Assembly: GCA_973895155.1 (NCBI GenBank)
Contig: OZ316891.1
Location: forward strand, 17,544,095-17,608,094
Direction: 5' to 3'
Source of the DNA: Marsupella aquatica
Lineage: Eukaryota; Plantae; Marchantiophyta
Length of the DNA: 64,000 nucleotides
Positions within the stretch are counted from its first letter, which is position 1. Each line of letters begins with the position of its first letter. A program made the translations under genes and the position numbers. Below are positions 1-44,151 of this stretch, one piece after another. The notes below the pieces were generated by a model. The model ran no database searches. It saw only the letters and a list, made by a program, of their open reading frames with translations, and was not told where the DNA came from.

Positions 1-49
1 GCACACTTTTTATTGCCCAAATGTTCATAAATTGAATAATAATTCACTT

Positions 50-2854
50 TTAATGAATAGATTGATAAATGGACCTTCCGGTTGGAGGGTACCAAGGTTG
101 TTTCACATGTGCTTTGTATTGATATATTGGAACAATATCTCTCATAGAGAAAAGAAATGTCACTGGTTTTGAGTGACCCATTATGTCTTTTACCTTGAAA
201 GTTTTCAAAAACTCTTTGTAAGCTGCAACCTCTTGGATCAACCGTGGGACAAGATAAATGCTTTCACACTCCCAAACCTCAGCCATCAACCCCAAGAGGG
301 TAGAAACCTCCTTGTACTTCACTTGGTTGGATACTTTCAAAAACAATGCATCGACATCCTCATGGGTGTGACCAACCATGAGAAACGATATCTGCACTGT
401 TTCAAAAACCCCTCTACTAACAAGCTCACTGCAAAATGCCATCACGTACTGGTTTTTGTTATCTTTCCCTGAATTATCCAATTGCAAGGTCAGGTGCCTT
501 GGCAATGGTTTGAAAGAGGTAGACGTAGCCTTGGAATCAACACCAAATTTGTCTTGGTCATCTTCAGCTCCTTGAAATCTAGCAATTGAGACTTTTTTGG
601 GTTCTAAGTAACCTACGAGAAATGCTTCAAAGTCCAAAAGAGATTGAAAAATTGGCCTCGTTGCAGCCCAATATAATCCTTCAAGGAGGTCTCCAGATTT
701 GTCCCCCTTGTAATCCTCCAGATCTCTAAGGCACTTGGCCAATGATGTCACTGTGAAGTCTGCATCTCCCGGCCAAAGCCCAGTGAAACTGAAGTGAGCA
801 TACACTCCGGGATCCCTTCCATGGGTCAACATCCCAATGAGCGCAATGGGGAGCGGTTGACCACTACCAGACAATGATTTAGGAGTGGAGACCAACCTAG
901 GGATCCTTGTCTTGGCCTGGTCCATCTTGTCATGTATAATGCAAAGATAGTTCTCAGGATCCTTCTTCGCAAGAACCCTATGAGCATAGTAAACATATCT
1001 CCTAGACATTTGCTCACAAAGATGGCGAGCTCTTCTTTCCTCAATCTCTAAACGCTCTTTCTTTCTTTTCTCCCGCATCAACTGATCTTTGAACTCAGTG
1101 CAAAGTGTACACTTTGCAAATGCACTTCCCTTGTGAAAGTCAAAATTCATGAAGGACTCACTCCAGAGTTTATACATAGTGTTTTCACTCACCTTCACGT
1201 AGCCATCTAATTCCATTTTTGAGTATACGGTCTCCTCCAAAATCTCTTTCTTCGTGAAACAAGATTGGAAGTCTGTACTCAACCGTGTCAGCCCCGTGAG
1301 ACCCTTCATAGGGAAGATGCGGCATGGGTTCTCCGTTTTGGATTAGAATGGACTCCAACAAAGCACGAGCATGCAAGGTGCTTCCCCGTGTCTTGTGTGA
1401 ACCCTTGTTTCCGTGGAATCCAACCGTGCAACCTACTTCATATTGATTTTTGTAATCATAATACTTGGCAGTGCTGAATCCATGCATTTTAATAAATGCA
1501 CCCTTGCAAACAAGTCTACTTCTTACAACGAAATATCCTTTTGTCTCCACTTCCTTCTCCCTACAGCCAAAAAGAGTGAGAATGTGACTGGTTTTGTTGT
1601 CGCTTGACATCCCATGGTATTCCCTCCTTATTGCCTGTAGGTCTTCTCTTGGCATGTTGAGGCAACACTTCAACTTACAACAACCTTCTCTTTGGATGGA
1701 GTCGATTTCCTCCTCTGTGATTTTCAGTATCGCTTGAGACTCCAAGTGCTTCTTCCTTTTTTCATCTGGGTTGACCTTTGTTCTCTTGATGAAATTATAC
1801 GGGCGCTTCGAAAATTCAGTGTCACCTTTCATATCTACCTCTAGATGATCTTGACCATCAATAATTGGTTTCGGAGAAACCTCTTCAATGAGATCCAGAA
1901 GAAAAATACCCCTTGATATCAGCAGAAGTGAACGGACGGCCCACCTAACAAGACCAGGCACTCCTGGGGAGATATTTGGGAAAAATAGAGGGTCAATCGC
2001 GCGTGTGACAGCAACCCAACGTGATCTGGTCCAAGAACATCATCATCAATTGCACCTGACTCGAAAGGAATTGTGATGATGCCAACCCCCACTTTGGTCT
2101 GATTATCCTCAGCATACAATTCCACCTCCTCGGTCATCCAATTAGAACGCAAACTATAATCCTTGAAATTATAATTTGAAAAAACATACCATGTGGACAG
2201 GTCGTTTAGCATATCCTGGGAAGAACTCCTCCGAGTAACATCCTTTAAATTCCAGAATACAAAAGTGTCCAATGCTTCCTGAACGGTATCGGCTCCATTG
2301 TGAGGAAAGGGTAACCTCTCCCTTCCTTGAAAAACTTCACATATTTTCACACTAATCCTAGAAGTGCCAAGTCTTTCATTGTGACAGGTCTCATCGGGAT
2401 TCGTCTTGAACACAAATCCACGAGCCACAATCTGATTGCCGATCCAGAGCTCGACTTCATCGCCAAATATAATCGAGTCTCCAAAACTTCCCACTGAAGA
2501 TTTGTCTGGTACAAAACCGGGAACCGTATCCTTTGCAGAACAAGATGCATCCATTTGTGTTGTCGCTGGAGTTGACTGTGACTTCAAATATGCAAAAGAG
2601 GCATCCCAAATAATGCAGGAGTCGACAGCATCAAACAGGGTCCTGATCGGCGGCAAAGGGTAAGGAATTTCTCGTGATCCCTCATAGCACTTCTCAATGA
2701 GAACTCCTATATGATTACTTCCCAAATCAACATTACGCACTGAGTCACCCGAGTCAACCTTGAGGACGGTCCCGCAAGCAACTTCCACTCCGTCGATTAC
2801 GAGGCAAACCTTGTCCCCTCGAAAGAAAATCCCCATTTTGAAAACATGGTCCAA
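50..2854 (-). pseudogene. DDE transposase (Sola-like/DUF7869-type) with 3 N-terminal Tnp1/En-Spm-like (DUF8039-type) repeats; two frameshifts
   Basis: ORFs 1919-2854, 1185-1961 and 50-1309 join into one reading frame after a 1-nt loss near 2020 (restores HVGVAVTRAIDPLFFP...VRW) and a 1-nt gain near 1266 (restores EYRLPSCFTKKEI). Motifs: CCKLKCC, FAKCTLC, IIHDKMDQ, LQLDNSGKDNKN, FLMVGHTHEDVDALF. The N-terminal repeats read VA.G.V...LG..HI.V.I.....PYP....L.DA....I.W. Confidence 0.85.
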
Positions 2855-3579
2855 ATTGTTGGATGTAGTTACCTCGAGATCATCTCGAGGTAAAGTGACT
2901 ACAAAAACAAACCAAAAAACCCAAGTGTAGAAGTTTATCCCACAAAATTGTGTGATAGAGAAAATAAGAAACTCTTCTACCTCGAGACGATCTCAAGGTA
3001 GAAGAGGGACCAAAAACTCCAATATGTAAAAATTCAGAAGTATTTAGTTGGAGACGATCTCGAGGTAAAATATGAAATCTCACTAAATAGCGAATTCAGA
3101 TTCTATACCTCCGACTCTCTACAAACTCAATTATAAGAAGGAAAACTGAATGCACCATTAGAAAGAAGGCAAAAGTGAATAAGTTTGAGGATCAAACTTA
3201 TGACTCGAGATGATCTCAAGCCAAGAAGGACATTGTATTTGACAAAGAAACTATTATGAATTTTAAGCCACCCAAAATAAGAACATATAAATGGCTCTAG
3301 ATGATCTAGAGGAATGATTTGGTGCAATTAAGAAAGTAGGCTCCCAGTTTACTTCCAGACACTGAGAAATAGCTTCTAAAAGGCCATCAAATAGAGGGAA
3401 AAGGCTTCCAAATGGATTTTGACCGACACTAGTATAAGCTGAAAAGGTTTGGTTTTCTAAAAGATAGGAGCTCAATTATTTTAGACCTCCTTCAGGGATT
3501 AAAATGAGAATTTCTTGAAAATATCCTAAACACAAACGTAGAGTCCACAACCCTTGAAAAGAACAACAGAAAGAGATCA

Positions 3580-4060
3580 GAGCAAAAATCTAGAGCCAAA
3601 GAGAGGGAGAGGGAGAGGGAGAGAGAGCAGAGAGAGGCAGAGGGAGAAACAAGCGAGCAATGAAACGAAATGAGAAGAATGACCCGCTGGAGACCAAAGA
3701 GAAGCAATATATAAAACCCTGACAGACAAAAAGGCCAATAAGACGGCTTGGTTGAACTTGTGTCACGGCTAAACTCGCGGCACGGCTGAAGTACGAATAA
3801 CAATAATGACAACACGTGTGACCGTAATAATGACTGTACGCACCCAACAGGTTGCGTGGCAGCCTGCCTGAGCCTGCACGAGCCCTGGCACGCTTGGCAC
3901 GGCCAAGGCCGACCCCCGAGGGGCTTATAGTGGCTTCAGGGGTTTTGAATTCCCCATTTTCACATTCGCCTCCTCGCCTCTTCGCCTCCTCGCATCCCTT
4001 GCCTCCTTGCCTCTAGATTGTTTCGCGCTCTTGCCTCGAGATCCTTGTATTAGCCTCGAG
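3580..4060. promoter_or_regulatory. Putative bidirectional promoter of the transposon
   Basis: TATA-like tatataaaa at ~3707. A GA-rich tract at 3590-3650 reads as a CT-rich leader on the minus strand, and a CT-rich (cgcctc)n tract at 3968-4040 lies on the plus strand. A GC-rich core at 3770-3930 sits between the two divergent genes. Confidence 0.4.
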
Positions 4061-5349
4061 ATTGCAAAGGGTCGAGATTAGGTTTTTTCCTCGAGATTTT
4101 ATAGGGTCAAGATTTTGTGTTTAGGCTCGAGCTTTGATAGGGTCGAGATTTTCTGTTTAGGCTCGAGATTTGTGTTTAAGTTCTCAGCCCGTCGTACGTT
4201 CCTCTCTTCACCAGCCATGTTGACTGTTGTAGATTTCTCCAAGGAGGACTTCGCTGAGTACAACCTTGCAACCGTTGGCGAAGAGCTTCAGACCCATCTA
4301 GACTCAGCGCATCAGATCCATCGCACCATTAAACATAATTCATCATCTTTGTTCTGTTCAGGTTTAACTCGAGATCGTCTCGAGCTTCAATTGGTCCACT
4401 TGTTTCTGGATTCCTTGGATGCAGTTGAGGCTCGAGATCATCTCGAGCCTATTGATGTTTTCTGCAATACTTTACTTCAAAAGTTGTGATCTATCAATTG
4501 ATTTTGCATTTGATGTAAGTGGCATGAGGCTCGAGATCGTCTCGAGCCAATATGCAATTCCTGCATGTGACCTAGTGAGATTTCTTCAAGTTGGAAACCC
4601 TTATCCTTCAAAGTGAAACATCATATCCATAATATCTAAAATTTCCTTCCTCCAGGGACTTTTGTACCCTCCAACTCGTTTTGATCATTGACATCCAAAC
4701 AGGTTTGTGGGTATCAGAAGTCAATGGAGAAAGTGGATTTTAATCATTGATTGAATATGATGTTCATTGTTGAATATGATATTTGGATCACTCGTTTGAC
4801 ATGTTAGGCTCAAGATCGTCTCGAGCCAAATATATCCCTCACCATCTTCCATTATGGTCATTCGTATCCCTTGGCCAATTTCTTCCAGTTGGAAGGACTC
4901 CATGTCGTCTACTTCAATTACTCATATCCTTTTCATTGTGATCCAAGCTTGCCTTCTGGGCCACTTTCTTAGTCCTCCAACTCGTTTGTGAAGATGACAA
5001 ACCACTGAGTTAGAGGGTTTTGAATGTGGTCGAATAGGTGACATTGGATCATTCTTGAAAATGTTGTTCGTTAAATTTGAGTGGTTCATGATATGCAATG
5101 GAATAAAACCTCAACTGATATATATGAGGATCGAGATCATCTCGAGCCCTTGTCTTTTTCTTTTAAACAGATGGTGGTTCGAGATCATCTCGAGCCAATT
5201 GTGTTTCCTAACTATTGTGTTATCTTTTTAGATTTCTTGGGTTTGAAATCTCTTTTTAAATTCCACGGATGAAATGGCATTGGAACACGTCAGACTTAAA
5301 AGGAAGATCGAGATCATCTCGAGCCACCTATTTGTTTCTTGGTTTTGTA

Positions 5350-8300
5350 GTACATGTTTTTGACAATTGCTACATTTTGGCTGTACCAAGTGCAAAATTG
5401 GGATCGCCTAATTTGGTAGTCGAAGATGGTCGCAAAATCCATGGTTAGAAACCATGGAATGGTACCAGCTATGGCAGAGTTAATTCCGTATTCAAGAGAG
5501 AGTTTGCAGTTGCTCCATTATGAGAATACTGCTGAGGATCGAAAGGAGTTCGAGTGGGGTGTTAAGAATAAGAAGGTGCAGTTCCTTGCAATCAGTGGAC
5601 AACACTCGGCAAAGGCAGCTGTTTGGATCATAGGTTGGGCTAAGAGCGATGCAAAGTTGAAGGAGGTCGCAAAAAGTCTGTAAAAAGTCATGAATTTTTT
5701 CGGACAGAACTCCAAGAACAATACTTGCTCAACACTCACAAAGGGCAAATGCTGTTAATAAGACTATGGAGTATGAGTCCTGTTTTCTTGATACTATGGT
5801 CCATGCCCGTCGACAGTTTGACGAGTGTGGCCGTCCGGAGAGACCCGTGATTGGGTCCAATAGACTAACGGATCATCAAAAGTTCTAGGTAAATTCGAAC
5901 TCAAATCCACTTCTAGCTCAAGATTGTCTCGAGCCTCGAGGTCAAGTTTCTGTATTTGATTTATCTTCATGTATTCTCCCATAAATTTTACCATAGTTCC
6001 TTAATTCTACTTCGAGATCGTCTCGAGCCTCAGATTTTCTTTGTACTGTTTGGATCAGGATTTTATGGCCCTTGCCAAAATAACAACTGGAAAATCCGAT
6101 CTGAGGAATGTTTTTTGGTTGCTATTTTCGGATGAGAACCTCTTCCGAACTTGGAGACAAATGTGCATCGATTGGGTCAAGGGACTTCTTTCGGATGGTC
6201 TAGGGGAGTTAGGTTCAAAAATAAATGGGAAATCCTGGACAACAAAAATGATTACGCCGGCATTGTTTAGATGCTTTGAAGGAGACTTGAGTAGTGACGA
6301 CATTCTGAAAGTTTTTACTGCCGTTCAACAACAAAAGGTTTTATTGAAGAAAGACCCAGCCAACAAATCTGATGTTCAATCAATGAGTGATATGGCTCAT
6401 ACTTTCAAAGTCATGACCAAGCTGAGGGCAAAAATTATGGAGTACTTTGTTTTGAAGTATCCTGATCTGTTTGCCAATTCACTCACTTGGTTTGAGCTAA
6501 CTCAATTTTTGCCTGCATTTATGGATCGTGGTGAGTTGCCAAAACTTAGACAACTTGTTGGAGAGGTTTGGATTTCCAACCTCCTAAAAAGAAATAGGCC
6601 AAAAGACCCATTTCCACAAAGTCTCGTTGTTAGGCTTGAGCAGATATACTGCAAGGTATTTGGCGGGTTGCCTTCAATGGAGGATACTCCTTATCGCACA
6701 TTTTTTAGCGATAATTTGATGAGGACAATGAAGCCTGAGATTGTTGACTCGGTGCAAAGGATGTGCCCACTCTCCATTGTCGATTTTGGTCGTCTTCGAC
6801 AATAGTAGTGGACAGATGCCAAATTTTTTGTCTTGCTGGAGTATTGTTTGCAGATGGCGAACTCGACGGAGCTCTTAGTAATCTTTTTTGTCCGTCAAGG
6901 CCCATTGATAGGCCAGATTCAGAGTGCCTTTGAAAAGATTCGTCGTGAGAAGAAAGTCCACACGAAGCTGGAGTACGGGAGCTACTACCGTGATCAGCTG
7001 CCCAAGGAGGAGGGAGATTTTCTCATTGGAGCCCGAGACTCGATCATCTTTGGGGGAATTTGTTGTGAAGAGGAACCAGACTGGTCCCAAATTTTCTTTG
7101 ATGACTTTTATGCGTTTTGGAACTACAGTGAGAAGTGGGACAAAGACTTCACAGTCTTGCCTTTGAAGGCCCCTACTAGGAACAACAAAGACCAATCAAA
7201 GGGGAAAGATAAGCTCAATTAATCCACTATTGATGTCAAAGTTTTGGAGAAGATGGCCCCATCTTATGAGATGGTCGGTCGGCGTGGTGGCTTTGTAAAT
7301 CCAAGAGCAAAGCCTTTGCGAATGACAAAGCGTCTTGTTGATTATTTCTCGTGCCCACGTCATACAGGGTTGGATTTCTTCTCTGGAGGACAGACATTGA
7401 AAGCTTGTGTCATTCTTGGTCGGGATTGTTTTGTGTATTCGGACACAGCTCAAGAGATGGAATTCACAGAAGCCTTTGCTCAGCTCCTTCATGACAACAA
7501 GCAGGTTTTATATGTGCCACCCAATGAGCCGTTACCATCTGAGGAAATTACTGCCAGTCCCCTCGTTGTAATAGAAGAGGCGGCCTTAGACATAGCTCCA
7601 GTGGAAGCCAGTGTTTATGAGGAAGTATTTGCGGAGAATTTAGAGCATCGCAAAACAGAGGGCCCAAAAATCACAAGCTACATGGAAGAGGAGGGTGAAA
7701 TACTGCCTGAATTTGGAAATGATGCTTGAGATGATCTCGACGTTCCAGGTGTTCCTTCATCGGGTGACCTTGGGGATGCACAACGTGAACAACAGTCTTC
7801 AACCTTGGATGTTGGTTGGGAATCCACCTTGCAGGATGCAATTAGCCAACCAATTCCAAGCCCTCCTCAACTGGATGAGACTTTCTCTACTAAGAAAGCT
7901 AGTGGCTGCCATACTCCCCCTCAAGACGAGGCAGGTGCATCGTCCTCTCCCTTGGACCAAATGTTTTGCGCTTCAGAGAATAAGCTTGTTTTCACAGATT
8001 CTTCTACTGGAAGCCCCGTAATTCTCCCTTTCGTTAGGAAACTGGGGACTGAAATTGGTAGAACTGGTTACAAATCACTCAAAGCAAGTGCTACTCATTA
8101 TGTTTGGACTGATGGACCGTCAAAAGGTCAACAAGTCAGTATAGAGCAGTCTGAGAAGATTATTCGATCTAGAAAGTATAGGAAGGATAAGTTCAAATTA
8201 GTGTCAGTTTGGTCTGAGCCAGCTCTTGTTGAGACCCTTCCCGGAGGGATAAATTTGGACATCCAAAACCAACTAGGAGATAACCTTCTAGATGAATTTG

Positions 8301-9646
8301 GGTCTTTCAGCACGTGAGGTTGAAACCCAAGTTAGTTTGAACAGTCCTGAAATTCAGCCGTCGAAATTATTATGTCTACCTTCACAGAAATAGGCGGGCC
8401 CTTACCAGTTGTGGAGTGTGTCGACAATAATCTCCAAAGATGTCCTGAGATTTCTTCAACTACTGACCTTCAACCAACAATAGGTATGACGTTGACTGTT
8501 GTTCATTCACTTGTGATGCTCAAGATCGTCTCGAGCATTCCTCTGTTTTATCTCCCACAATTCTAACATTGGTGTTCCTTCTTTGCAGGACCCTTGCCTC
8601 CACTTCACGGTCCGATCAGACGGAAGCTATTGATTCTTGACCTCAACAAAATGTGTTGGGATTCTGTCAAAACGCCAAGTTCCGGACCGCGCCGTAGTGC
8701 AACAAGTGTCAAGGGTGTCCACTGGGGGAGACGTGGAGGGTTTAACTTTATGTATGTTGAGCGATCCCATCTTCACGAGTTCTTAATCGCAGCTTTTTTG
8801 TTATTTGATGTTGCCATTTGGACTTGTGCAAGGAAACCCAGGATGGATGAAATGATTCATTTGATCTTCAGTCAAGAAGAGCGAGAGCAATTCAAGTTTA
8901 TTCTCACACAAGAAGATACATTCGATACTGGAATCCAGAGGCCTGACATTACCGATGGGAAGGCAAATATTCATTTGAACGATTTGAGGGTGGTTTGGAA
9001 ACGTTATGGTAGATTATATGACGAAACTAATACACTCCTTCTTGATGACACTCCAATGAAGGCATTTTCAAATCCAGAGAATTGTGGGTTGTTTCCTTCC
9101 TCATTTTCGCATCACTCCACGAATGATACATTCTTTCCAGAAATACTATGGCCTCTGCTCAGGAAATTGTATCATGCCTTCAATCTTCAGCACTACCTTT
9201 TTATCAATCATCCAAAGTGGTCTATGATAAATGTTTTAGCCGATAGAGATCAACAGGCTGCCATTTATGCGTTGTTGACAGAGCGGTGGGGTAGTATGGT
9301 ATGGGTTCATTCGGTTATCCATACAGTCTTGGATGTCACAACGGACGAAATTCCTTGGGATGTCAAGAATGAAGTGCAACAATTACCACCAATGGAGGAA
9401 TTGACGGAGGAGGCGATCAATGACCTTGCAAAGACATTAATTGGATATTAGTACACAGGACCCTACAGAGACAATCATCGGGGATTTGTTTCGGAAGTCT
9501 TGAGGTGTAGGGACCTCACCACGAAGTTCTGGAATAGGAAGCCTCTCGATTTCTGCAATCGCGATATGAAATATGACCCGTCAGGGTCTAGATTTACTTG
9601 CTCAAATGAATTCTGCGGGGTGGAGGAGCATGAGATTTGGGTCTAG
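5350..9646 (+). pseudogene. Spliced cargo gene: ParB/Srx-like domain + beta-class N4C/N6A DNA methyltransferase-like fold + acidic linker + FCP1/HAD phosphatase domain (possible first exon at ATG 4217-4361)
   Basis: ParB-like YQV(Q/R)...FLAISGQHSAKA at ~5385-5620, then a frameshift near 5683. GT-AG introns at 5889-6058 and 8484-8588 preserve the frame. ORFs 6041, 6833, 7244, 7805, 8372 and 8594 share one frame and are separated only by stops explicable as C>T changes. MTase C-terminal motifs NPRAKPLRMTKRLVDYFSCPRHTGLDFFSGGQTLKACVILGRDCFVYSD at ~7298-7445. FCP1 motifs RKLLILDLN...R..LHEFL...FDVAIWT...DL..VW...YDETNTLLLDDTPMKA..NP at 8620-9110. Confidence 0.75.
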
Positions 9647-10346
9647 ATTATCTCGACCCTACACTGAACAGTTACAATGTGAGTTGTAGATATACATATT
9701 CTTAAAAAAAGTGAAGCTATGCGTACTATCCATTTGAGTCTAGATGCTGTTGATCCTCTTTTACTTGTACATATGTTCTCAAAAAAAGGTTATTTGGGTC
9801 TCGACCCTATACAAAGGGAATAGCTAGAGATATAGATTCAACAACGGGTCAAAATTATGTGGACCCTACATTTGGGTCGAGATAATCTTGACATAGATTT
9901 TTACATAGTAATTGATATACATTCAACAACCGGTCAAAACCATCTAGAGCCTGCATTGGGGCAGACGTGGTCTCGACCCTGTAAAAATAGGTTTTTTACT
10001 TTTATAATACATTACCGGTTTACCTTCTGTGTTTGTGTAACTTGGTTATCATGGGTCATTTGAATTTATTATATTGTCTTATTCTATTTTTTCATTGTTT
10101 ATATTGTATATAATAAGAATACTTTATTGTCTTTTAATTAATAAGTATTAATAATTGATAACTAAATTATTTAATTAATTATTTGGGAATTAGAATTGTA
10201 ATTTTAGACCTCAAAAAGTGTATATTTGGCCACTAAAATATATGCTTTTGGAGAACAAGTTATAGAACTTTTGGGGGTAAAATAAGAAATTTGAAGGTCA
10301 ACTTCTGGACAAGAGAAATTCCAGTTTTAATGAATAGGGTGATCTC

Positions 10347-11113
10347 CATAGCTTGTGAAAAAACCTGAACGTCTCCTTCACTCATCATGACGCACTCGGT
10401 AACAACTCAACAGCAATCCAGCTACCAAAATGACCAGCTCGCTTCAACCTCCACCTTGAGCTATAATGTGCGATCCCTCCCGCACTGCACAGCTCACACC
10501 GTTGAAAAAACGCGAACTCTAGTCTCTCCCCCGAAAAGCCGTCGAACACGAATAAAACCTGAACGACGCAAACTTCAATTCCTCTGCACCACGGATACCG
10601 ATCAGCGAGTTCTAACCACCGTTAGAAAGCCCTCTCACTAACCTATCCGCACAGCCACACACATTCGAGTTTCATGCGACGAAACTCCGACTGTACCATC
10701 GACAATGAACGCTGGAAACACTTGTCACGAAAAAACCTCGTCACCTCCCAGGCATGCTCTGATACCACTTGTTGAGCATAGACGACATTCGCAACGGCAA
10801 GCCCATGAACCATCCAACGCACAATAGTCGACATAGAGAGATACGTGGTTCACCTCCACATGAGGCTACGTCCACGGGAACACACAAGAGCTTTACTGCA
10901 CTCTAGGCCGACCGGCCATACCAAGCATCCACAGCGCAAGCTCTCCCTATCTCTCAACTAGCTTCGTAACAATGAGCCTAAGTTCCACCAGGGTCTGGCA
11001 TCAGCCCTGGCTATATGCACAACAACACTACCGCTAACATTAGCTAGGTCCTAACCTGAGTTACCCTAACTGTGGTTAGCTCATGAGTCACAAGACTAGA
11101 GCAATATCTAACA
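10347..11113 (-). mobile_element. Ty1/Copia 5' LTR (~10771-11113) with tRNA-iMet PBS and 5' internal leader, interrupted by the DNA transposon
   Basis: gctctgatacca at ~10756-10767 is the reverse complement of the PBS TGGTATCAGAGC. It lies next to an LTR edge tgttgag (10771), with the other edge probably ...ctaaca (11113). The LTR contains the acgtggtt...gctacgtccac motif typical of plant Copia LTRs. Confidence 0.7.
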
Positions 11114-14100: not shown

Positions 14101-15502
14101 AGTAAGCCTTCAAGAATCCAAATAATATCCCTCTCTATGTGGTTTTCCTTTTTTTATATCTCCCATGAGGCCTTTCATCAACAATTATTCTGCAAATGAA
14201 TGCTATCTACCAAAATGCTTACTTTCAGTTGTTGCATGGCGAGGTGAAAATTCTTATCTCCAATTTGTCAAAGCTGGAAACCTTACTCCTGGTTTCTTGA
14301 GAAGTAAGGAGTAAGGTGTAAGGTTTTTCAGCTCACCTTTACTTAAGAACCTTACTACAGTGCACTGTTGATTGGACCTAGCTAGTGAATAAAGTGGGTA
14401 AGGGTAGGTCAAATTGTCTCACTACAATGGCTATTGCAGATTATGAGGACGGTTTTTCTAGACGGCAACGTTGCTTAAGTGTTAACACTATTTGGCCAGC
14501 CAAGTAGTGCTTTGATTTCTCACTGAGCTCATTGCATGCTGGTTGTCAGAGATTATATTCAATCGCCAAGTGCCATCAGTCAGGCTATCAATTGGTTAAA
14601 AAGGCATTGCAGTTGTGATTATTATTTTTTACCAAAGTTCTAAGGCAAGGGAAGGTGGAATCCTGCAAGATCCCACCCCGTGTCCATTTACAAACTTGCA
14701 AAAGGAGGGAACCATACTGTCCCGTCGTGTGTTGTCCAGGGTTATTTGAGACTCTTGGATTAACTAAAGTGGTACCCAAGATTGTTCTTGAAGTAGAGTG
14801 CAAAATATGAGAGATGCGCAAGAGTGTAGTCATGACTATGCTAGCTATAGCCAATGCATAAAGTGTTTTGGCATGGAGCACTAAAGGAATAGATTGTCAT
14901 GAAATTGAGGCTAGGTTTTAGGCATGGAACGGTCAAAGGGGGATGTAAATTGACAGGGGAAAGTATATTAGCTTCTTCTCTTGGGGAGGAAATTTTTATT
15001 TTGTGGAACTTTATTTTATATTTTCTTCCCAGTTTTTTTACTCTTATTTTAATGGTGTTGGAAGGAAGAAAAAAAGGGAGGGGGGTGGGAGGGGAGGGAC
15101 GAAGGCATTGCAAGGGCAAGGGAAAGAGAGGCAAGAGGAAAAAAAGGGAAGCTAGGCCATTACTTCACAGCATCACTTTCACAATAACAACATCAATTAA
15201 AACGACAACGTTGTTACACCAACAACCATGCACTTGAACAACACTTCTGCACCCATAACATGACTACATAGATGACACGGCTAGAATGACAACACTTTTG
15301 CAACAATCACATGGTCATAATGATGATACAATTGAAATGACAATTGACTTTCAAAACCACGACATAGCCACATTGCCATCCCAACCACAAGCACAACCAA
15401 ATTGTAATGATAATCGTGCAATGCATGGACATAGGGCTTCAAAGCTCACATTGCCTCCACCACACTTCCTTTCTTCTATTACTTCCTCCACAACATCATT
15501 TG

Positions 15503-15662
15503 TGTTATGAGGTAACTAGTGCTAGACCAGACTAGGAGGTTACCTTTACCATGGTTACCTCAAGACACTATATATACACCCGGTTGATCCCCAACCGAGT
15601 GATTCATTCATTCATTCAATCTCTCTCCCTCTCCAACTATGTATGAATCCTATATCACAACA
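15503..15662 (+). repeat. 5' LTR
   Basis: tgttatgagg...atcacaaca, 158/160 identical to 18956-19115. Confidence 0.95.
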
Positions 15663-18600
15663 CGTTATCAGCACGACTCTCGGAGGCTGAGCACTTGAAT
15701 TTTTGTAGGGATTCGACAAGTGACAAAAATTAGACACTTGAGGGAATCCCAAGACAAAATCCCTTCAAGGAAACCTTCATTTGAGAGTCCATGTCAACCT
15801 GGCGTTGGAAATTGATGGAGTATCCTCTATGAGAAACTGACTCCCAAGAAATTAGAAGAAACAAAATCAGAAGGAGAGGCTGATCAGACAAAGAGTCAAA
15901 CCCATGGATTGACCCTTATGGGATCATTAATAAAAGCTTTAGAGGGATTGATTCTGAAATGCAAGATTGAAAGTACACAACATGATTTATTGAAGGAGGA
16001 GAAGAAACACTGCAGCGCAAAGTCCATAGAGAAACCAGGATAAAGCTTGGGCTGGAGTCAATCAATCCAATCAAAGAGACCTGATTGAATATAGGCAGAG
16101 CACAATCAACAAAATTTCAATCAAGGTTAGATCTGAAAAGGCACCACACCCTATAGAGAACGAATGTTGCATTAGGGCTCAACAACCGGAGGGTGAAAAG
16201 GACTGAAGGAAATTTGAGGGATGGAAACCTCATGAGAAGACAACACAGTGATCACGGACGCAGCCGCGAAGCCATGCAAAAGGGGGAGAATCAATGCACA
16301 AGCCCAAAACGGCAAAATTTGGACCAGGCTTTTCGAGAAACCATCGACAAAACTTGATAAGTGCAAAACCCCCATACTTGCAACTCATTATAAAGAGTAT
16401 TTTTACTTACAAAAGAATCAGATCACTTAAAGCATATTTTTCAAAGCTTTTAAATCACTTTAAGATACATGTGTAATCCTTAACATAAACCTAAATCACA
16501 AGCTTACACTCTCATTTTACAAATGTGAATACTGTGCCTTTACACATTACCTACCAATACACATGTTGAGTTTACAAGCATTTATACACATTGGATACAT
16601 ATAACATGGTTGTTACACCATTAATATGACTTTCCACCATAGGGGGAGGAAGCACATTGTACCCACAACTATCTCCCACCTCCTAATGTCATTTTGGTTC
16701 ATTCACCTTCTAAAACCATTTGAACTTATACACCTTCTGGTATCATTTGATCTCATAAGATCCAAACGGACTCAGATAAGGGACTTTCCATGACTAACAA
16801 AGGTAAAGGTAGAGATGATTTGATAATGGGCAAAGCCCCTAATCTCATCTATACATGAGTTAATGAGGAGTTAATATGGGCAAAGCCCCTAATCTAACCC
16901 CTACATTCTCTTGATCAGTGGGCATTCCTATCAGACCTTACCTATAGATGAGTTCCAAATTTCAGAGATATTCCTCACACTCACAATTTCAAGAGAAAAT
17001 AGCATGCATTTTATGCAGATCAATGGGAAGAAACTTCATTGTCTCTAACTTATCTACTCAAAAACTTAAACCAAACTCATGATACACTACAATGGAAAGT
17101 ACCTTTGTACTTGGCCATACACATAGTGATTAAGACCCAAAACCAGAATCTTATACTTTGATTAAAGTTTTATACACTTTTAGCATGCATGCCTTTACAA
17201 CTTGTACAGAAGTAAGACCACAAACCTCATCCCTTTGGACCTAGGATCATGTTCACCAGACAAAATGAAAACACTTACTCTAAGACACTGGACTAGGATA
17301 AGAGAATTAGAAAACTAACAATGTTAAAGGTATGGTACAGATGTTTGGATTATGGGCAAAGCCCCTAACCTCATCTAGTCAAGACCCAATGCGGGGTTAA
17401 TATGGGCAAAGCCCGTAATCTACCTTGATACACTCTTCATTTTAGGGAACGGAATAACATCGCGGACCAATGACACATTCACCTTTGTGTATTACTATTA
17501 AACAAATCTCTTAGATTGAAACTAAAATTAAGACAATTTTCATCCCCACACCCAACATAGAATTAACGGGAAAACAATATGAATTAGATGCATACCAAGG
17601 GAAAGAAACTCAATTCTCTCAAAACTTATCTATTGAAGAACTTGAGCCCACCTACACCACAATTGTACGTACAACTAGTACTTGGAAACTAAACAGAGAC
17701 TAAACCTCATATATCTCTATACGAGGAGCCAAATAGTTTAGGGGAAGCATCTTATCTCCACAAGTTACTCTAACTTCAAATCTCCCTACATGGCTATCCC
17801 ATGTCTCAATAATATTTTGAATCTACTTACATGGCCTGCTACCCCATGTCTTGACACACTTGTCAAACTACCCCGTGATATGTGCAGACGTGCAGGCAGA
17901 CATGCCACTCACGGGAGACCTAACTTAACCGACACCCTCTGGTGTGATTCTGGTTCATACACCCTCTGGTGTAGCTTGAGACCTAACACCCTCTGGTGTC
18001 AACAACCCTGTGTCCACTAGCACCTCTGTGCCTCCTGACACCTTCGTGTCCATCAACACCACTATACTCTCAAATGAGCTTATTGCCATAGACTCTCCCA
18101 TGATAACATTGCCCCATCCTACCCACATATGGGTCTTTTATCTTGACTTTGGGCATTTCTAAATATGGTACTTACACCATACCAAACTAGGACTTTTCTA
18201 TCATTTTTATAATAATACATGATTAGCATCCGTTGATGCAACATGTCTACTCCACACTTTGGAAAACTCCCATTTAGCAATTGGGCTAATTAGCACCTTC
18301 GGTATCAATCCAGTGATCTGAAACATATAGGATAATGCCACTGCATCCCCACACAACCCACATTAATTATCTTAATACCCCCTGGTATTAGATAGCATGC
18401 ATAAGCCATACTAAAACATGACATGGTTCCTCCAGCTACTAACCAAACTACTAATTATTTGGAACTTAGATTGTTTATTTGATGCAAGGCCATACAGGTG
18501 ACCCAAATTTCAAATGCGGAGAACTAGACAAAGTTTTTCATGAAGGCATTGACCCCTCCTGTCCACAGACACCACTGCCATGCAATTGAACTCCGAAGCT

Positions 18601-18955
18601 TACACTGCCTGATTACTACTGATTGACACACACCACCACTGTGGTTCAACTCTCACATCTCACCAAGAGAACCAACCGGCTGTACTCTTTTTCCTTTAGG
18701 GTCATGTATTTTATTTTTTCTCTACTACCCTGGTAGAGTTGTTTTTACCCCAATCTAGCACCGCTAAAGGTTTTAATGAGGCAGTCCACCTCTTTGGTCA
18801 ATCAAACATACATGTCTATAAGCATGCAAACACTTTTTACTATCACTGAAACTCATCCCGTGCAAGTCTATAAGCATGGTGATAGATTTTTCTTACCTAG
18901 TTCTAGGACTAGTCTAGATTGTCTCCATAACTCCCATTATGTAGCCAAGGGGGAG

Positions 18956-19115
18956 TGTTATGAGGTAACTAGTCCTAGACCAGACTAGGAGGTTACCTTT
19001 ATCATGGTTACCTCAAGACACTATATATACACCCGGTTGATCCCCAACCGAGTGATTCATTCATTCATTCAATCTCTCTCCCTCTCCAACTATGTATGAA
19101 TCCTATATCACAACA
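18956..19115 (+). repeat. 3' LTR
   Basis: Preceded by the polypurine tract and followed by the TSD atttg. Confidence 0.95.
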
Positions 19116-38225: not shown

Positions 38226-38467
38226 CTTTGTTGCCAACGCCCCTCAATCAGAAAGGCCACAGAGAGATTCAGGGTTCTCGCCACCTGAGTGGGAACATTA
38301 GAGCTCGGGCGGGCTTTTCGGTACATTCGTTGCGTTGGTTCTTCTTTATCTTTTCCGTGCGTCCGTCACTATATGCGGCTACAAGTTGCAAATATCCGGT
38401 AGTCCGTCACAAGAACTCGGGTTTAACAAGGCATATTTTCACAACACACTTCAAAGCCTTTACCCTC

Positions 38468-38850
38468 CATCTCCGGGACTTGATGGACACCAAAGATGTA
38501 TTTTAGTCTCATCTCCAGGACTTGATGGAAACTGAAGATGGGATTTTAATCTTCTCTCCCTGACTTGATGGACATTAACGATGAATTTTAGTCTCATCTA
38601 CCGGACTTGATGGACTCTGAAGATGGGATTTTAATCTTATCTCCCCGACTTGATGGACACTGAAGATGGGATTTTAATCTTATCTCTCCGATTTGATGGA
38701 CACCCAAAATGGATTTTAGTCTCATCTCCCGGACTTGATGGACACTGATTGAAGAAAGGGATTTTAATCTTATCTCCCCGACTTGATGGACACCAAAGGT
38801 GTATTTTAGTCTCATCTCCCAAACTTGATATATGGAGACCGAAGATGGGA
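38468..38850. repeat. Tandem array, ~9 copies of a 42-48-bp unit
   Basis: Unit tctcc..gacttgatggacac..aagatg.gattttaRtct(c/t)a, with two alternating variants. Confidence 0.9.
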
Positions 38851-40797
38851 GTTTAATGGGGGTTAGAAAAAATGGTTCACACTTTTTATGGTTGACAGTG
38901 TAGCTAATTATGGCGAAAAGTGTAGCTTAGTTTTGGTTCTAACTTTGCTGTAGCTAGGTACCAAAAGAAAAGTGCAGAATTGTAGATTACAGTTTGTAAA
39001 ATTATGATTTTTGAGGAGATACGATTGAGTGTTGGAGTTGTCCAAAACATCCCAGCATTTTTCAGTAGGTAGCTTGAATGTCAAGGATCACACCAAACAA
39101 TTTTCAAACTTTTTTAGTTATCCAAAAACAAATGTTTGAGTTTATAGAAAATTGACATTTTGTAGGTTTTGTGGCACCCTGAGTATGTAGTATGCGCCCT
39201 GTGCAGCGGAGGTAAACTCGACGTACAGCAACTATGACAGAAAGACTGTATTTTTTGGATTTCTACTAAGTTATGGTATTTTTATGATTTTGGACGGCCT
39301 ACCATCTAAGGAGTCTGATCAAGTACTCAATCCATCTTTGTGGTCAATCAAGTCCACAAGATGCTAGAGGGGGCAGTTAGGTCCTGTCCTGCCCTCATTG
39401 GGCTCATTTCAAATCTTCAAATCATACTGCCTGTCCCTCCTGATTGCTTGACAAGAAATTTGAAACTATTCTCCTACTTCTAGGAATAACAATTGAACTA
39501 ATTCTGAAGGCACTGATGTGCGGTACTTAAAATGAATGACTTATTAACTCAAGTTATTCGATCTATTATTGTACTTTTTTTTCTCAACCACCAGTATCAA
39601 TATATGTGTTTTAAACATCGATATACAGTATTGACTATAAACTCTGACTACTGATGTATGTAGGTTGACATCCCATCAGTTACTCATGGCCGTCAATTGA
39701 AATGAACAGTCCCACAAGTTTTGGGGGTCATTCGCACACTGTCAGTGATTCTTGATTATGCCTGAAGTGACCAATTAAACAAGTCTTCGTTAAGTCACTT
39801 TACAGTCCTAGTCTTTTCAATCTGTGAGATATTTTATCAAAATTTATATGGAAATGACTTCCCCAGACATTAAGGACAAGATATATGTCATTGTTTGCCA
39901 AGTTAAGTACTTTGGCTAAGGATCCCCATCCCCATTAAGTTATATATGTGTGCAATTCCCACATATATAAATTCCTAAGCCGGTTCCTAAGCTTGCATGG
40001 GATCTACTAAAACAAGTATCTGAATCAGACTGTTCATACGTTCAAGGAGTATTTTGAGATCTCATCTGAGTTCAATGGTTTGATTGAAGATCCCATCTAA
40101 GCTTGTGAACCCGGGTTTACACATTTTGCTTCCTCAAAAACTAGTTAGATCATTTACTTCGACAAAAGACAGTCAAACTTATAAAAGGGAAGGCCAAAGC
40201 AACACAGGACCCATATCACCAACCCTTCACGTCCTACTGTATTTTCTTTCAAGAATCTTTATTTTGAGCTATGTTCTACTGAGCAATATAAGAACGTACG
40301 TGGCCGGAGAATCTGTAAAAGGAAAAAAACTTGAGGCTGTATTGATTCAAGAATTCTCAAGATTGGATACTTGATCATTGATCAGAGAGTGTCAAGTTCT
40401 TGTCACAGTACTTATATCGATCTCAACCAGCTCAAGTAAACTAGTTCAATGATCTAGATTGTCTTTGCAGTTAGAACTTGGAATTATTAATTAGTGGCTG
40501 ACTTGCAATTAGAATACTCCCCATGTTTGGCCGGGAAGGAAGGGAGGGCCAAGTCCCGAATGGGAAGACTTACTCTACTACATAAGCTTCGATCAGTATG
40601 ATCTCCTCCAACCTCATTCAAGATGTTCTTTCTCTAAGATTAAGGTTTCCTTCGAGCAAAGTGCGTGCCGTCATCTTTTCTGGCTATCTTGCTCCAGTGA
40701 ACATTTGGAAAGCGATCCCCTCTACATCCTCTTTGCAGTTTCTGTTTCTGTTTTTGCTTCCAGACTTCCGAAGGACTGATTTCAGTTGCTTCTCAAG

Positions 40798-41205
40798 ATG
40801 GCGATCAAAGCACTATATTCTCAGTTGGCCGTCACTTTCCTAGTCTTTCTCCTTGCAACAGTGGCTTTGGCGGATCCAACCATAATTGCTCTCACTGATA
40901 CTTTCCATGTTAGTTGTGACACTTCTCCGCCTGTTCAGTGGGACCTAGTTTATCCACAAATTGCCACAGTTCCACTTGGTGACAGGCCAGATGTCACCTT
41001 TTGCTCATTTACTCAGGTTACACAAGGTGGGGTTCACCGTCATCAGAGATTTGCAGTATACCCCGATGCACTTCGTCAAGTGAGTTGCGATCCCGGTAAT
41101 TGTGCATGGGCAGTCAAAGCGGATGGTTTCTATGTGCACGATCCAGCTACCAACACCGAGGTGCTTGGATTCGTGTGGCTGACTGATGTATTCACTGAAG
41201 TTTGA
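40798..41205 (+). CDS. Small secreted Cys-containing protein, S-protein homologue (plant self-incompatibility S1-like)
   Basis: Intronless 135-aa ORF with a hydrophobic signal peptide (..VTFLVFLLATVALA-D). Four Cys in the SPH-type pattern HVSC...TFCSF...FAVY...C....C.WAVKADGFY...W. Confidence 0.7.
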   Translation: MAIKALYSQLAVTFLVFLLATVALADPTIIALTDTFHVSCDTSPPVQWDLVYPQIATVPLGDRPDVTFCSFTQVTQGGVHRHQRFAVYPDALRQVSCDPGNCAWAVKADGFYVHDPATNTEVLGFVWLTDVFTEV

Positions 41206-44151
41206 GGAGTCCGTAATCGATCGCAGACAGGTACATAGGTCTTGAACCTTTGTGACTCTTCATTCATCACTGAGTCAGAGTATTAATACTTGAGATCTCT
41301 ATCTGGTTATATACGTAGTTTCTAAGAGACTGTCAAAACTTGATTGACCCGGATACAGGTCATCTGAATTAGTTGTGCTAGGCCAATTGCTTCAAATTTG
41401 CATTGCATACAGGGCTCGTAATTAATCCACTTGAGGTTGTCTTACTTCCGTTATGCCCTTGTTGTATTCTTACCCAGGTCCATGGGCGCGAGGATTCTGA
41501 TCGCAAGCTGGCCACCCGGCTGGTCACTCCTAATAATTGCAAATCCTGATTGCAAAGATAATATAGGTCGTTCAGTTGGTTTCCTTGAGCTAGTTGAGAT
41601 CGATATTACTATGACATGAACGTGGCATAAATAAAGTGGGTGATGGCCCTATGGCCTGTCCTATGGATTTCATCTAGTCTGTACTTATCTTCCGCTTGTT
41701 TTCTTCCCTGCAATCTGAGTGGAGGCCAGGACCCCGGGCCAGGACCCCGGACTAGGGCCTGTCAGAACTAAGGTACATAGGACAGGATGGCACAGGGAAA
41801 AACTGTCACATGCCCCTGTCGGAAATCAAATTTATCCTACCTTATGTGTGACTTTTACCTAGTTTGTTATTGGTGTTCTTAAGTCCTACTTACAAAAAAT
41901 ACAATAGTAGAGTATTTGTATTTTCCTTTGGTAATACGTGGGTTTTTGCCAATTCTCTTGTGTTCAGACAGGAATTTGTATACTTACCTACAAACACTAA
42001 AACTGCTCATAAATCTTCAACCAGAGCATCAATTTGGGCTATAAAAATTGTGTCAATGAATTCTAAATGGGTAATGATGCATGAATCATTACCTAACAGT
42101 CTACATAAATAACACACGTGCCTTGTTCCACTTAAAAGTATTAAAAGTACCCAAAGATATCCTCAGGAATTACTACATAACATACTGGGAAATTTAATTC
42201 CAACGTGGGGTCCCACTTTAAATCAGAACTCGGAGAAGCTCCTATATTCAGAAGTGGGAATGTATGCAATTCTACCACTTTGCGCGTTCTCCTACTTATT
42301 TGTCAAAATGATAGGAGAAACCTCAACAAAATGGGAGTATGTCCCACATGGGAAGGGGATAGATCTGCCTTGTGTGGGCTAGTCTACCCATCAAGTCATT
42401 CTTCAAATTACATGTCTAGTCTGTCACTCTCAAAGAACAGTTTGGGTTTCAGTCTGACTGATTTTTGTAAAAACTTAGTACGTACATATTTTTTTTACTT
42501 GTTTTCTTGTTACAATTGGGCAATGGTCGATCACTTTGATATCGATCTTTGTTTGTCTGGATGAACTGTGCATATGCAGTTGGGCCATGTGTAATTGTGT
42601 CGTAGTGTTTGTGATCGATTCATCTCATATATATTAATTCCTTCAGTCTTCAGTCGTGTCTGAGTTATATTTATGTCTCTCTTCATGACTTTGCATGCAT
42701 GCATTGATTATATTGTCAAATCTTTCTAACTCCTTCTAGGCTAAGAGGAAATGTAAATATACAATTTCTCATTCTCCATATCTTAATATCTCTTCTTTTG
42801 CATTCCCGAATGCATTCTCTCGTAAAAGGAGGACCACAAAAGTCCAGTGCGAAGCCCACAGTCATACAAAGAAACCCTGCAGGGAAAGAGAACAAAATAA
42901 AACAGGGCGCCATATATTACACTACTACTATCGGCCACTAATGCACCACTGTACACGGCTAACCAGAAACCATCCATGGGCCAAAGAGATAAGCAAGTAT
43001 TGTGGACCATCTCTACTCTAAAGCCCAGTTTTCCGGCTGAGCCTAGAGAGTTGAACCTTTCTCATGCAAATAACGAGGATTCCCCATGAAATATGCAAGC
43101 GAAATATTGCAATTGGTCAAGGAAAGAAAGATATAAGGTCTCATAACTCAAAAAAATAAATAAAGGTCTAATATACCGAATAGAAAAGAATGAATTGAAA
43201 AAGGGTAAAGGAGTTGAGAGAATTTACTAGATTCAAAACAATACAAAGTAAAAGCATAGAATAAACTAGATTGACAAAAAACATAACAAGTAATTCTAAT
43301 GCGACAAGATAACTAGAAGATGTTAGTCCATGTAGGATATGGAAGTGTCCAAAAATTTTGTCCCAAAAATATAGCAACTGTCTGTGGATCATCTTGACTC
43401 TAAAGCCCCAAAATCTGATGGGCTCTCCAGTCTACCACTATTAACAAGAGGAAAAACAAAGTGGCTAATTAGCTACCTAACCTAAGAGGCACAATGGCTA
43501 TGTATCACCCTGACAGAGAAAGAGTCCATCAGGCCACCAGCCTGCGTTCGTTGGGAGATAATTTACTCCTTAGCACGCAGCAGACTGGTAATCCGTCCCT
43601 GCTGGTAATCCGTCCCTGCTGGTAATCCCACATTAAAATGTGATAACATAAGTTAAAATGTGATATAAGGCTGGCACTCATTGAGTGAAAGAAAACAATT
43701 TAATGTGATAATATAATGCGTGCACTCATTGATTTAAAGAAAAACAAAGAGGTTTATCAAGGTATGGAAGAATGTACACACCGTATACTACGGGTGTGCC
43801 ATAACAGCGGCTTTACACATTCCGTGGACTGGGTCAGCCATTTCTTCTGAGAGTAATCGAACCATATCAAAGGATCTTTTCTGCCCACAGTTGCAAAACA
43901 TCCTTGACTCTCTTCTGCTCGCGGTGAGAAAAACCCTGTACAAAATGAAAAAGAAATGATGAGCCTCTTAAGTGTTTTTCGAAGCACTCATGCAACTCGA
44001 TCGAGTCAATCAGCACACACTGTAGCCTTTGTCCAGGCGTCGATGTTTCCTTTCCCCATCTCCGAACAAATTCGGTTGCCGTCGAGCCATCAGTTCGGGC
44101 TTCTCCTCGCTACTGTCATCAGCAAAATTTGGTATCCGTTCAGTGTCAGCA

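Follow-up and report, generated by a model that had tools for sequence, protein, structure and literature searches.

Within the window analysed here, 64,000 nucleotides of Marsupella aquatica DNA, lies a 10.3-kb element (positions 61 to 10338). It is a defunct member of a repeated family of DNA transposons that has relatives in liverworts and mosses. Its DUF7869 transposase gene lies head-to-head with a cargo gene, and an FCP1-like open reading frame (ORF) completes the layout.

48 to 60, plus strand: 13-bp end word, read from the sequence and common to 10325 to 10337
59 to 2836, minus strand: DUF7869 transposase gene, disrupted and split into three frame pieces (PF25273, E = 2.3e-40)
5420 to 5888, plus strand: cargo exon for a ParB-fold domain, of which the C-terminal two thirds are present, SGQHS box included; one frame break near 5680
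5889 to 6058, plus strand: GT-AG intron with two motif copies (cores 5918 and 6012), its junction matching spliced homologs P0023 and P0093
6059 to 8317, plus strand: cargo exon with a helical domain, a methyltransferase fold and a C-terminal part
8484 to 8588, plus strand: probable GT-AG intron, in frame and with an internal stop, carrying one motif copy (core 8520)
8589 to 9645, plus strand: FCP1/NIF phosphatase-like ORF (PF03031, E = 4.5e-14)
10325 to 10337, plus strand: inferred right end of the element, the 13-bp word shared with 48 to 60

Judging from the sequence, the word at 48 to 60 probably terminates a second copy of the element, one that abuts the transposase where it is truncated; other copies of the element diverge before position 67, and the true left end lies outside the window. 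LTR-retroelement sequence follows the right end word. Related loci were found in one of 118 candidate stretches in metagenome contigs and in none from viral contigs.

A preliminary description had reported about 20 copies of an element-restricted 21-bp palindrome built of paired XhoI-like CTCGAG half-sites. We searched the whole 64-kb window for the core TCGAGA-N3-TCTCGA with up to 2 mismatches, using 60 shuffles for comparison, and found 19 cores in the element at the places described, 8 of them exact and 17 with no more than one mismatch. Shuffled element sequence yielded a mean of 0.48 copies and a maximum of 2 (n = 60). In the other 53,662 bases of the window there were no matches at 0 or 1 mismatch and four at 2 mismatches, which makes the motif nearly absent from the window outside the element. 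A 21-mer search returned 23 strand-matches at 13 places, against a chance expectation of 0.01. The palindrome is thus real, but its conserved unit is the 15-bp TCGAGA-T(C/T)(A/G)-TCTCGA: the 9-bp arms are perfect in 3 of the 19 copies, and just 4 keep both XhoI sites intact. Three single matches to an exact 19-mer in viral contigs, without clusters, were treated as chance. The copies and their groupings are as follows.

Core centres, from the core search: 1847; 2881, 2989, 3056, 3212, 3303
Core centres, continued: 4376, 4439, 4538, 4817, 5138, 5186, 5315
Core centres, continued: 5925, 6019; 7733; 8527; 9649, 9884
1840 to 1854, minus strand: motif copy with 2 mismatches within transposase coding DNA, from the core search
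2874 to 3310, minus strand: five copies of the motif, all upstream of the ATG of the transposase gene (core starts: 2874, 2982, 3049, 3205 and 3296)
4036 to 4171, plus strand: tandem array of the half-site TCGAGAT on a single strand, period 36, two half-sites per unit
4369 to 5322, plus strand: seven copies of the motif, lying upstream of the first cargo exon that has homology (core starts: 4369, 4432, 4531, 4810, 5131, 5179 and 5308)
4520 to 5120, plus strand: old tandem duplication of about 280 to 320 bp, one motif copy heading each unit
9642 to 9980, no strand assigned: subterminal group with full copies at 9642 and 9877, which have flanks of GGG/CCC type, and with half-sites at 9586, 9738, 9798, 9942 and 9970

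Only 2 of the 19 copies lie in coding DNA, although coding sequence makes up 65% of the element (P = 1.4e-6; the copy centred at 9649 spans the final stop codon and counts here as non-coding), confirming that the motif is kept out of exons. Placement in introns is supported for 5889 to 6058, whose junction is matched by a spliced homolog, plausible for 8484 to 8588 and putative for 4367 to 5325. The motif had also been placed far inside the element; this describes the 17 copies whose distance to the right end exceeds 1.7 kb but not the 9640 to 9980 group, which is subterminal and begins and ends within 350 to 700 bp of the inferred end. The site also has a polarity, in that 16 of 19 copies are oriented with the sense strand of their gene (P = 0.004, for copies that are not independent), including four of five in the transposase leader and all seven in the cargo leader.

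This polarity could indicate a motif acting at the RNA level, where a hairpin or protein site on the sense strand of leaders and introns would govern how both genes are spliced or translated. In favor of this idea, a GC-rich stretch separating the two genes (about 3700 to 4030) is flanked by full copies and contains none, and two of five stretches folded as RNA formed strong hairpins (z = -4.1 and -5.4). Against it, the three intron stretches folded no better than shuffles (z = 0.32, 0.75 and -0.55), the core shows zero compensatory changes among the 19 copies, pairing of the flanks beyond the core passed a permutation test at only 1 of 8 distances (p = 0.01), and there was no Rfam match. Duplication history can also produce polarity, and we consider RNA-level control quite improbable.

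Between the seven copies in the cargo leader, all intervals are multiples of 3 (63, 99, 279, 321, 48 and 129), and stops are scarcest in this register whichever strand is read (11 and 9 of 343, versus 17 to 23). A coding repeat is unlikely, given frame-breaking gaps between the duplicated units, a one-base insertion at 4609 in other element copies and no homolog match in the cargo leader. The spacing by 3 and the scarcity of stops remain a residual oddity despite this rejection.

Conservation of the core was then compared among copies. None of its nine non-CpG positions varies in any of the 19 copies, and the core is preserved between copies whose flanks are unrelated. All 13 core mismatches fall at CpGs, eight as CG>TG/CA changes, in agreement with the decay noted before, and five as CpG transversions. 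Within the old tandem duplication, the motif is identical at 20 of 21 columns, compared with 153 of 228 (67%) in the other columns, and the best other 21-column block scores 18. At three positions within motif copies where element copies differ (3048, 3050 and 4812; among the 40 of 996 difference rows listed), the other copies carry the consensus. Family-wide purifying selection on the motif is suggested by these three rows together with the within-window comparisons. A distant relative, L001 (28% identity), has an intron at the same position as 5889 to 6058 and no motif in it at up to 3 mismatches, and the motif therefore looks lineage-specific; the L001 sequence covers 1.8 kb, so a palindrome elsewhere in its family would escape this comparison.

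Alternatively, the copies could be neutral by-products of slippage, gene conversion or template switching, or sites for a host factor. Two copies do stem from one tandem duplication, short flank classes are shared among copies, and two extended arms, of 11 and 15 bp (the latter at 2982, with one mismatch), fit template switching. Such an origin, which we rate as very improbable, is hard to square with a core that stays invariant amid unrelated flanks, with near absence of the motif from the other 53.7 kb, or with the confinement of mismatches to CpGs (P = 6e-7 if mutation is uniform; 0.09 if CpGs mutate ten times faster).

The cargo gene encodes a ParB-like domain that is real by its predicted fold. 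The exon at 5420 to 5888 was defined by tblastn with liverwort homologs and by the fold of homolog P0093, residues 20 to 163 of which align with ParB (7bnk_B; Z = 8.8, rmsd 2.3, 96 residues aligned). The top 13 rows of the P0093 fold search were ParB, Noc, PadC, KorB and plasmid ParB, and the top Foldseek match of the domain was 7BNR. We found no trace in the window cargo of the first ~50 residues of the ParB domain, about a third of it; hidden micro-exons were rejected as an explanation, a profile scan of 3400 to 5460 staying within control scores. The CTP-binding arginine patch of ParB is GxxR. The corresponding position reads SGQHS in nine of nine sequences, making a CTP clamp doubtful. Structural alignments reached into the DNA-binding range of ParB, but superposing the helical region on that domain gave a poor overall rmsd of ~10, with linker pLDDT under 50, so that a helix-turn-helix is at best putative; TM scores to ParB_N+HTH_ParB clusters in the Atlas were 0.46 to 0.52, under its bar for naming. 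When longer proteins were searched by word matching, the cargo exon returned nothing, whereas HMMER with the cargo gave 86 homologous sequences.

In the exon at 6059 to 8317, which has internal stops and one reversed motif copy (7726 to 7740), the helical domain is followed by a beta-class methyltransferase fold, an acidic linker and a conserved C-terminal block. The fold and its motif order match the beta class: CcrM aligned over 214 residues (Z = 15.8, rmsd 3.9), RsrI and PvuII were among the top matches, with PvuII and rotifer N4CMT just behind CcrM, and M.RsrI was matched by profile (E = 7.6e-7). Conservation extends to motif X (NPxxKP-like) and to a putative SAM-binding motif I (DFFSGG); the latter reads DFFSGGQ in 13 of 30 sequences, lacking the last glycine of FxGxG and one residue shorter than in RsrI. 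The strand that should carry motif IV (238 to 242 by its place in the model) instead bears DF(S/T/A/G)R-type words (DFSR in 10 of 34 aligned sequences, DFTR in 3, DFAR in 3); a DPPY-type motif IV occurs in 0 of 34, and [DNS]PP[YFW] in none of the 86. The FCP1-like ORF is either a third gene or a spliced extension of the cargo; in Riccia P0065, an FCP1-like part is fused to the methyltransferase fold.

The preliminary description had proposed the motif as a methyltransferase target. An active N4C/N6A enzyme with an unusual catalytic motif, marking the sites, would agree with the clear fold and conserved motifs X and I. The absence of DPPY and a decay pattern of the 5mC type weaken this proposal, as does the length of the site, since the targets of known amino-methyltransferases are far shorter than 15 bp. 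The cargo of Ectocarpus Sola1-1_Ec32 is described as predicted to make 4mC or 6mA (PMC12477816), but we regard such activity here as highly improbable. The CG>TG/CA changes point to ordinary 5mC deamination in the window copy, not protection: with every mismatch at a CpG and 8 of 13 of the deamination type, its sites appear unprotected.

The main rival to binding by the cargo protein is binding by the transposase. The transposase is 54% identical to the 1250-aa relative P0100 up to P0100 residue 960, lacks the C-terminal ~290 aa of its relatives, and has three N-terminal repeats (about 2000 to 2836) alignable to P0100 residues 1 to 330. Pfam reported only DUF7869, and no Mutator-type transposase, for the window ORF and four of four full-length relatives. 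Three acidic motifs are visible that may resemble those of the DDD transposase of Sola, DNA transposons with terminal inverted repeats and a 4-bp target duplication. An Atlas search with the repeats gave only scores under 0.9, and a full-length relative had no match by sequence among solved structures. The repeats might bind the sites as TnpA does in Spm, for end synapsis or self-activation, leaving the cargo uninvolved. They weakly match TNP1/EN/SPM (PF03017, E = 0.19, under the Pfam cut-off), relatives carry precomputed PF26133, and half-sites recur in the direct tandem array at 4036 to 4171 and in the subterminal group; half-site arrays fit transposase or TnpA-type binding equally well. As described, TnpA binds and hypomethylates high-density motif clusters, with both effects restricted to termini, and transposases themselves activate cognate copies (10.64898/2026.08.24.746577). 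The clustered family-specific motifs are a further likeness, but TnpA sites are terminal, while most sites here are internal and the repeats belong to the transposase ORF. We hold transposase binding to be unlikely, if a serious contender.

Because the core is invariant at its non-CpG positions, shows no compensatory change and is kept in the duplication, a sequence-specific protein binding site is the best reading of the motif. The earlier proposal of a dimer-binding site fares well as to protein binding; the sense-strand polarity is unneeded by a symmetric dimer and counts against a dimer of the cargo protein. With near-even confidence, we favor the copies as family-specific sites for the ParB-like cargo protein, serving self-regulation in the style of VANC. 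The present analysis demonstrates that the sites exist, avoid exons and are conserved, and which folds the cargo domains have; this reading builds on these results. Active element copies would recognize and regulate their own DNA through the ParB-like protein at the palindromes: a cargo-protein dimer may read the two TCGAGA(T/C) half-sites via the helical region behind the ParB domain, as modelled on ParB-parS and KorB-OB, and then hold or spread along both genes, covering their leaders and introns. The methyltransferase fold, with its altered catalytic motif, could serve as a DNA-, SAM- or partner-binding module. The likely outcome would be an element that stays expressed despite host CG methylation, as VANC achieves for VANDALs. 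The window copy is defunct and the ParB domain of its cargo is missing its beginning, so any binding there would be in trans.

VANDALs are Mutator-like, whereas the element here combines a DUF7869 transposase with a cargo of ParB and methyltransferase folds. The likenesses to VANDAL/VANC, assessed within the window, are a short family-specific motif, 17 of 19 copies non-coding and 16 of 19 in sense orientation, tandem duplication and an accessory gene; VANC motifs are described as occupying introns and further non-coding sequence, mostly sharing one orientation, and as multiplying through tandem repeats (PMC5735166). The VANC21 motif is the non-palindromic 9-mer YAGTATTAY (PMC5735166), in contrast to the palindromic 15-mer here, and anti-silencing is proven in Arabidopsis (PMC5735166; PMC10398659) but putative here. 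ParB-parS and KorB-OB share with our element a ParB N-domain fold followed by a helical region and a palindromic site of similar length, which in the OB oligo is arranged around a single central base, and their sites are reported to act at a distance from promoters, which we take as a likeness (PMC11790492). They differ in the arginine patch, SGQHS here, and in the helix-turn-helix, which is only putative here; our setting is a eukaryotic transposon in which no ParA or KorA partner was seen.

Compared by description, two algal systems come close. PAG3 of the red-algal Plavaka (EnSpm) elements of Bostrychia moritziana (10.1101/2025.02.11.637652) is an accessory gene with a ParB-like N-terminal domain whose best match is 7BNR, as here, and it lies beside inverted-repeat arrays on the same element that are proposed as PAG3 binding sites. 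These are tandem arrays next to the gene, whereas the palindromes of our element are polar, stand singly and are scattered across leaders and introns; PAG3 has as its second domain a 2OG oxygenase rather than a methyltransferase fold without DPPY, and our element has a DUF7869 transposase with bryophyte relatives. Sola1-1_Ec32 of Ectocarpus carries a ParB-like and N4C/N6A methyltransferase gene proposed to bind and modify its own element (PMC12477816). Both it and our element have a gene for ParB-like and DNA-modifying folds on the strand opposite the transposase, but Sola1-1_Ec32 is 21.5 kb long, its methyltransferase is predicted for 4mC or 6mA, and the passages describing it mention no binding motif.

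Published accounts thus already cover a ParB-methyltransferase cargo, on Sola1-1 of Ectocarpus, and a ParB cargo neighbouring inverted repeats, on Plavaka elements of red algae. [quoted passage not shown] To these the present element adds a candidate site sharply delimited to 15 bp, along with a bryophyte protein family to match it, which makes the self-binding proposal directly testable in plants that have CG methylation and laboratory models. It is also conceivable, if improbable, that a land-plant transposon family repurposed the bacterial ParB-parS module, a ParB-fold clamp loading at parS-like palindromes within leaders and introns of the element, spreading, and shielding the DNA from host CG methylation via the pseudo-methyltransferase and CTD-phosphatase domain. 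As this ParB-like domain also appears to be the hitherto unexplained DUF3723 cargo of fungal Starships, such a system would be a module for self-recognition that spans kingdoms and has a defined target. If true, self-regulation through these sites would represent a second, unrelated sequence-specific anti-silencing system of plants, made from bacterial parts.

The short palindrome repeated through the ~10.3-kb decayed DNA transposon is real and non-random. Searching the window with the 21-mer gave 23 strand-matches at 13 places (0.01 expected by chance), 12 of them within 1-10,400. The recurrence reported in the preliminary description thus holds, but the unit conserved when all copies are centred spans only 15 bp of the proposed 21: TCGAGA-T(C/T)(A/G)-TCTCGA. 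This core occurs 19 times at two or fewer mismatches in 61-10338 (shuffle mean, 0.48; maximum, 2 in 60 shuffles), in line with the roughly 20 irregular copies first described, and 0, 0, and 4 times at 0, 1, and 2 mismatches in the window's other 53,662 bases. Paired XhoI-like CTCGAG copies exist as claimed, but both XhoI sites are intact in only 4 of 19. Nine non-CpG core positions are invariant in all 19 copies, and the core mismatches (13 of 13) fall on the two CpGs, eight being of the CG>TG/CA decay type already noted. If CpGs mutate ten times faster, this CpG-only pattern has a P of 0.09, which speaks against selection. At 4036-4171, seven more half-sites are repeated in tandem and in direct orientation.

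Copies avoid exons, as had been noted: coding DNA makes up 65% of the element, yet holds 2 of 19 copies (P = 1.4e-6). The core is asymmetric at its centre, and 16 of the 19 lie on the sense strand of their own gene (P = 0.004, treating non-independent copies as independent). All seven copies in 4369-5322 are spaced by multiples of 3 in the window copy, for which coding has so far offered no explanation. A lone motif-like copy at 54009-54029, with 3 mismatches to the 21-mer, aligns to 5306-5331 (26 bp, 88%, E = 0.038); it lies near an acyltransferase-like ORF (53364-53831), and no further element remnant was found nearby.

Between the units of an old tandem duplication, motif positions agree at 20 of 21 versus 153 of 228 other aligned columns (P = 0.003), in an alignment anchored on the motif whose best other block reached 18 of 21. 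Of 996 difference rows, 40 were listed; three of these fell in motif copies, and in each of the three other copies carry the consensus letter. A distantly related locus, L001 (28% protein identity), has an intron whose position matches that of 5889-6058. Because this counterpart, at a single short locus, lacks the motif, an old intron probably gained the sites within the present lineage. A neutral or host origin of the copies we consider very unlikely.

The minus-strand DUF7869 transposase (Pfam, E = 2.3e-40) lies head-to-head with the cargo gene. It is 54% identical to a 1250-aa relative up to the latter's residue 960, where it ends, and had 49 matches, among them Riccia, Physcomitrium, and Ceratodon proteins. 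In contigs of four public sequencing runs from two studies, one possibly the window's source, element depth far exceeded that of the flank; in run X1, six listed element contigs had depths of 320-439 versus 13.7 for the flank contig, which is not a copy number. Stops at 6803, 6806, and 9449 read CAG in other copies, making the window copy a decayed family member. At 2980-3002, a contig of run X4 turns back at a long-armed copy, and its extra letters contain another motif-like copy, which hints at copy-number change among elements.

We infer a right end at 10337 because a 13-bp word recurs at 48-60; an LTR retroelement follows, and the left end lies outside the window. The DNA transposon appears to sit inside the retroelement's internal region. 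Surrounding features were as follows.
1-66: probable second element end abutting the truncated transposase, with 6 bp of filler between them; nested insertion or deletion of adjacent DNA is the likely cause
10340-11113: LTR retroelement piece of very high depth (LTR about 10770-11113, loose ends), with a primer-binding-site-like word just ahead of the LTR
38415-38838, 15502-19115, 40409-41611: a repeat cluster with a period of ~43 bp, a 161-bp direct repeat pair (99%), and an inverted pair of 81 bp, all probably parts of further mobile elements

The cargo had 86 HMMER relatives; of ten looked up, the four that carried species names belong to Calypogeia fissa and Riccia sorocarpa, both liverworts. 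In a structure model of 6059-7528 (mean pLDDT, 85.6), residues 206-483 match beta-class amino-methyltransferases (CcrM: Z, 15.8; rmsd, 3.9; 214 aligned). The expected DPPY strand, as assigned by us, reads DFSR and similar words; DPPY was found there in 0 of 34 aligned sequences, and [DNS]PP[YFW] anywhere in 0 of 86 cargo sequences. Active methylation of the sites by the cargo, the link drawn initially, therefore seems highly improbable. Marchantia MpDN4MT1a/b, in contrast, are described as carrying TSPPY (10.1101/2021.02.12.428880).

The upstream domain was modelled on P0093, a spliced homolog from Calypogeia (mean pLDDT, 74; pTM, 0.48), and matches the N-domain of ParB (Z, 8.8; rmsd, 2.3; 96 aligned); its helical part extends into the ParB DNA-binding range, but at an rmsd near 10. 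In 9 of 9 sequences the box is SGQHS, lacking the ParB arginine needed for CTP binding. The ParB-like region adjoins fungal DUF3723 Atlas clusters (score, 0.96; 188 of 256 features), in which 78% and 22% of members carry that annotation; these clusters are nearest to both 5420-5888 and P0093. DUF3723 is an unexplained cargo of fungal Starships; the two names appear together in 31 papers of a search listing, and our literature search found no report linking DUF3723 with ParB. Homology begins only near 5420, with the first ~50 residues and the relatives' N-terminal extension missing, so 4200-5420 is a non-homologous leader whose exons are putative. Since several homologous ORFs end just past the block ending at 8317, the FCP1/NIF-like ORF (8371-9645) is a possible third gene, although one Riccia model joins it to the cargo. 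It reads DLNK where the phosphatase motif DxD is expected, so the catalytic words are changed in each of the three cargo domains.

Two leader copies fold better than shuffles, as action at the RNA level would predict, but three intron stretches do not, and the core is invariant with no compensatory changes. That invariance points to a protein that reads bases rather than to a hairpin, and we regard the RNA explanation as quite unlikely. The element encodes two candidate readers. Binding by the transposase N-terminal repeats, which match PF03017 weakly and have a precedent in the Spm protein TnpA (10.64898/2026.08.24.746577), is the main rival, though a rather doubtful one. We tentatively favour family-specific binding by the ParB-like cargo for two reasons: ParB-family proteins read palindromes of similar size and act at a distance, as KorB does (PMC11790492), and the majority of sites lie internally, an arrangement shared with VANDALs (PMC5735166, PMC10398659). 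The cargo would bind the sites, might spread along the element, and could thereby counter silencing.

Comparable arrangements are described in algae. In Ectocarpus, Sola1-1_Ec32 has, on the strand opposite its transposase, a gene that combines ParB-like and N4C/N6A methyltransferase domains, and the product has been proposed to bind the element that encodes it and to modify that DNA (PMC12477816); likewise, red-algal Plavaka carries ParB-like PAG3 beside tandem inverted repeats, for which the same was proposed (10.1101/2025.02.11.637652). Chlorophyte ParB-HTH-fused methyltransferases and inactive DIRS1 methyltransferases are also described (PMC4738411). PMC5751038 offered no usable Sola signature. 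Our literature search, with most subscription papers and Repbase reports outside it, found no report of such a land-plant element with dispersed palindromes, nor of a liverwort DNA transposon with ParB, inverted repeats, and an accessory gene. In its action the motif would resemble self-recognition sites of the VANC or parS type, but by the tests applied it belongs to neither family. On the boldest reading, which we think unlikely, a land-plant transposon would have reused a bacterial ParB-parS module as a spreading anti-silencing clamp.
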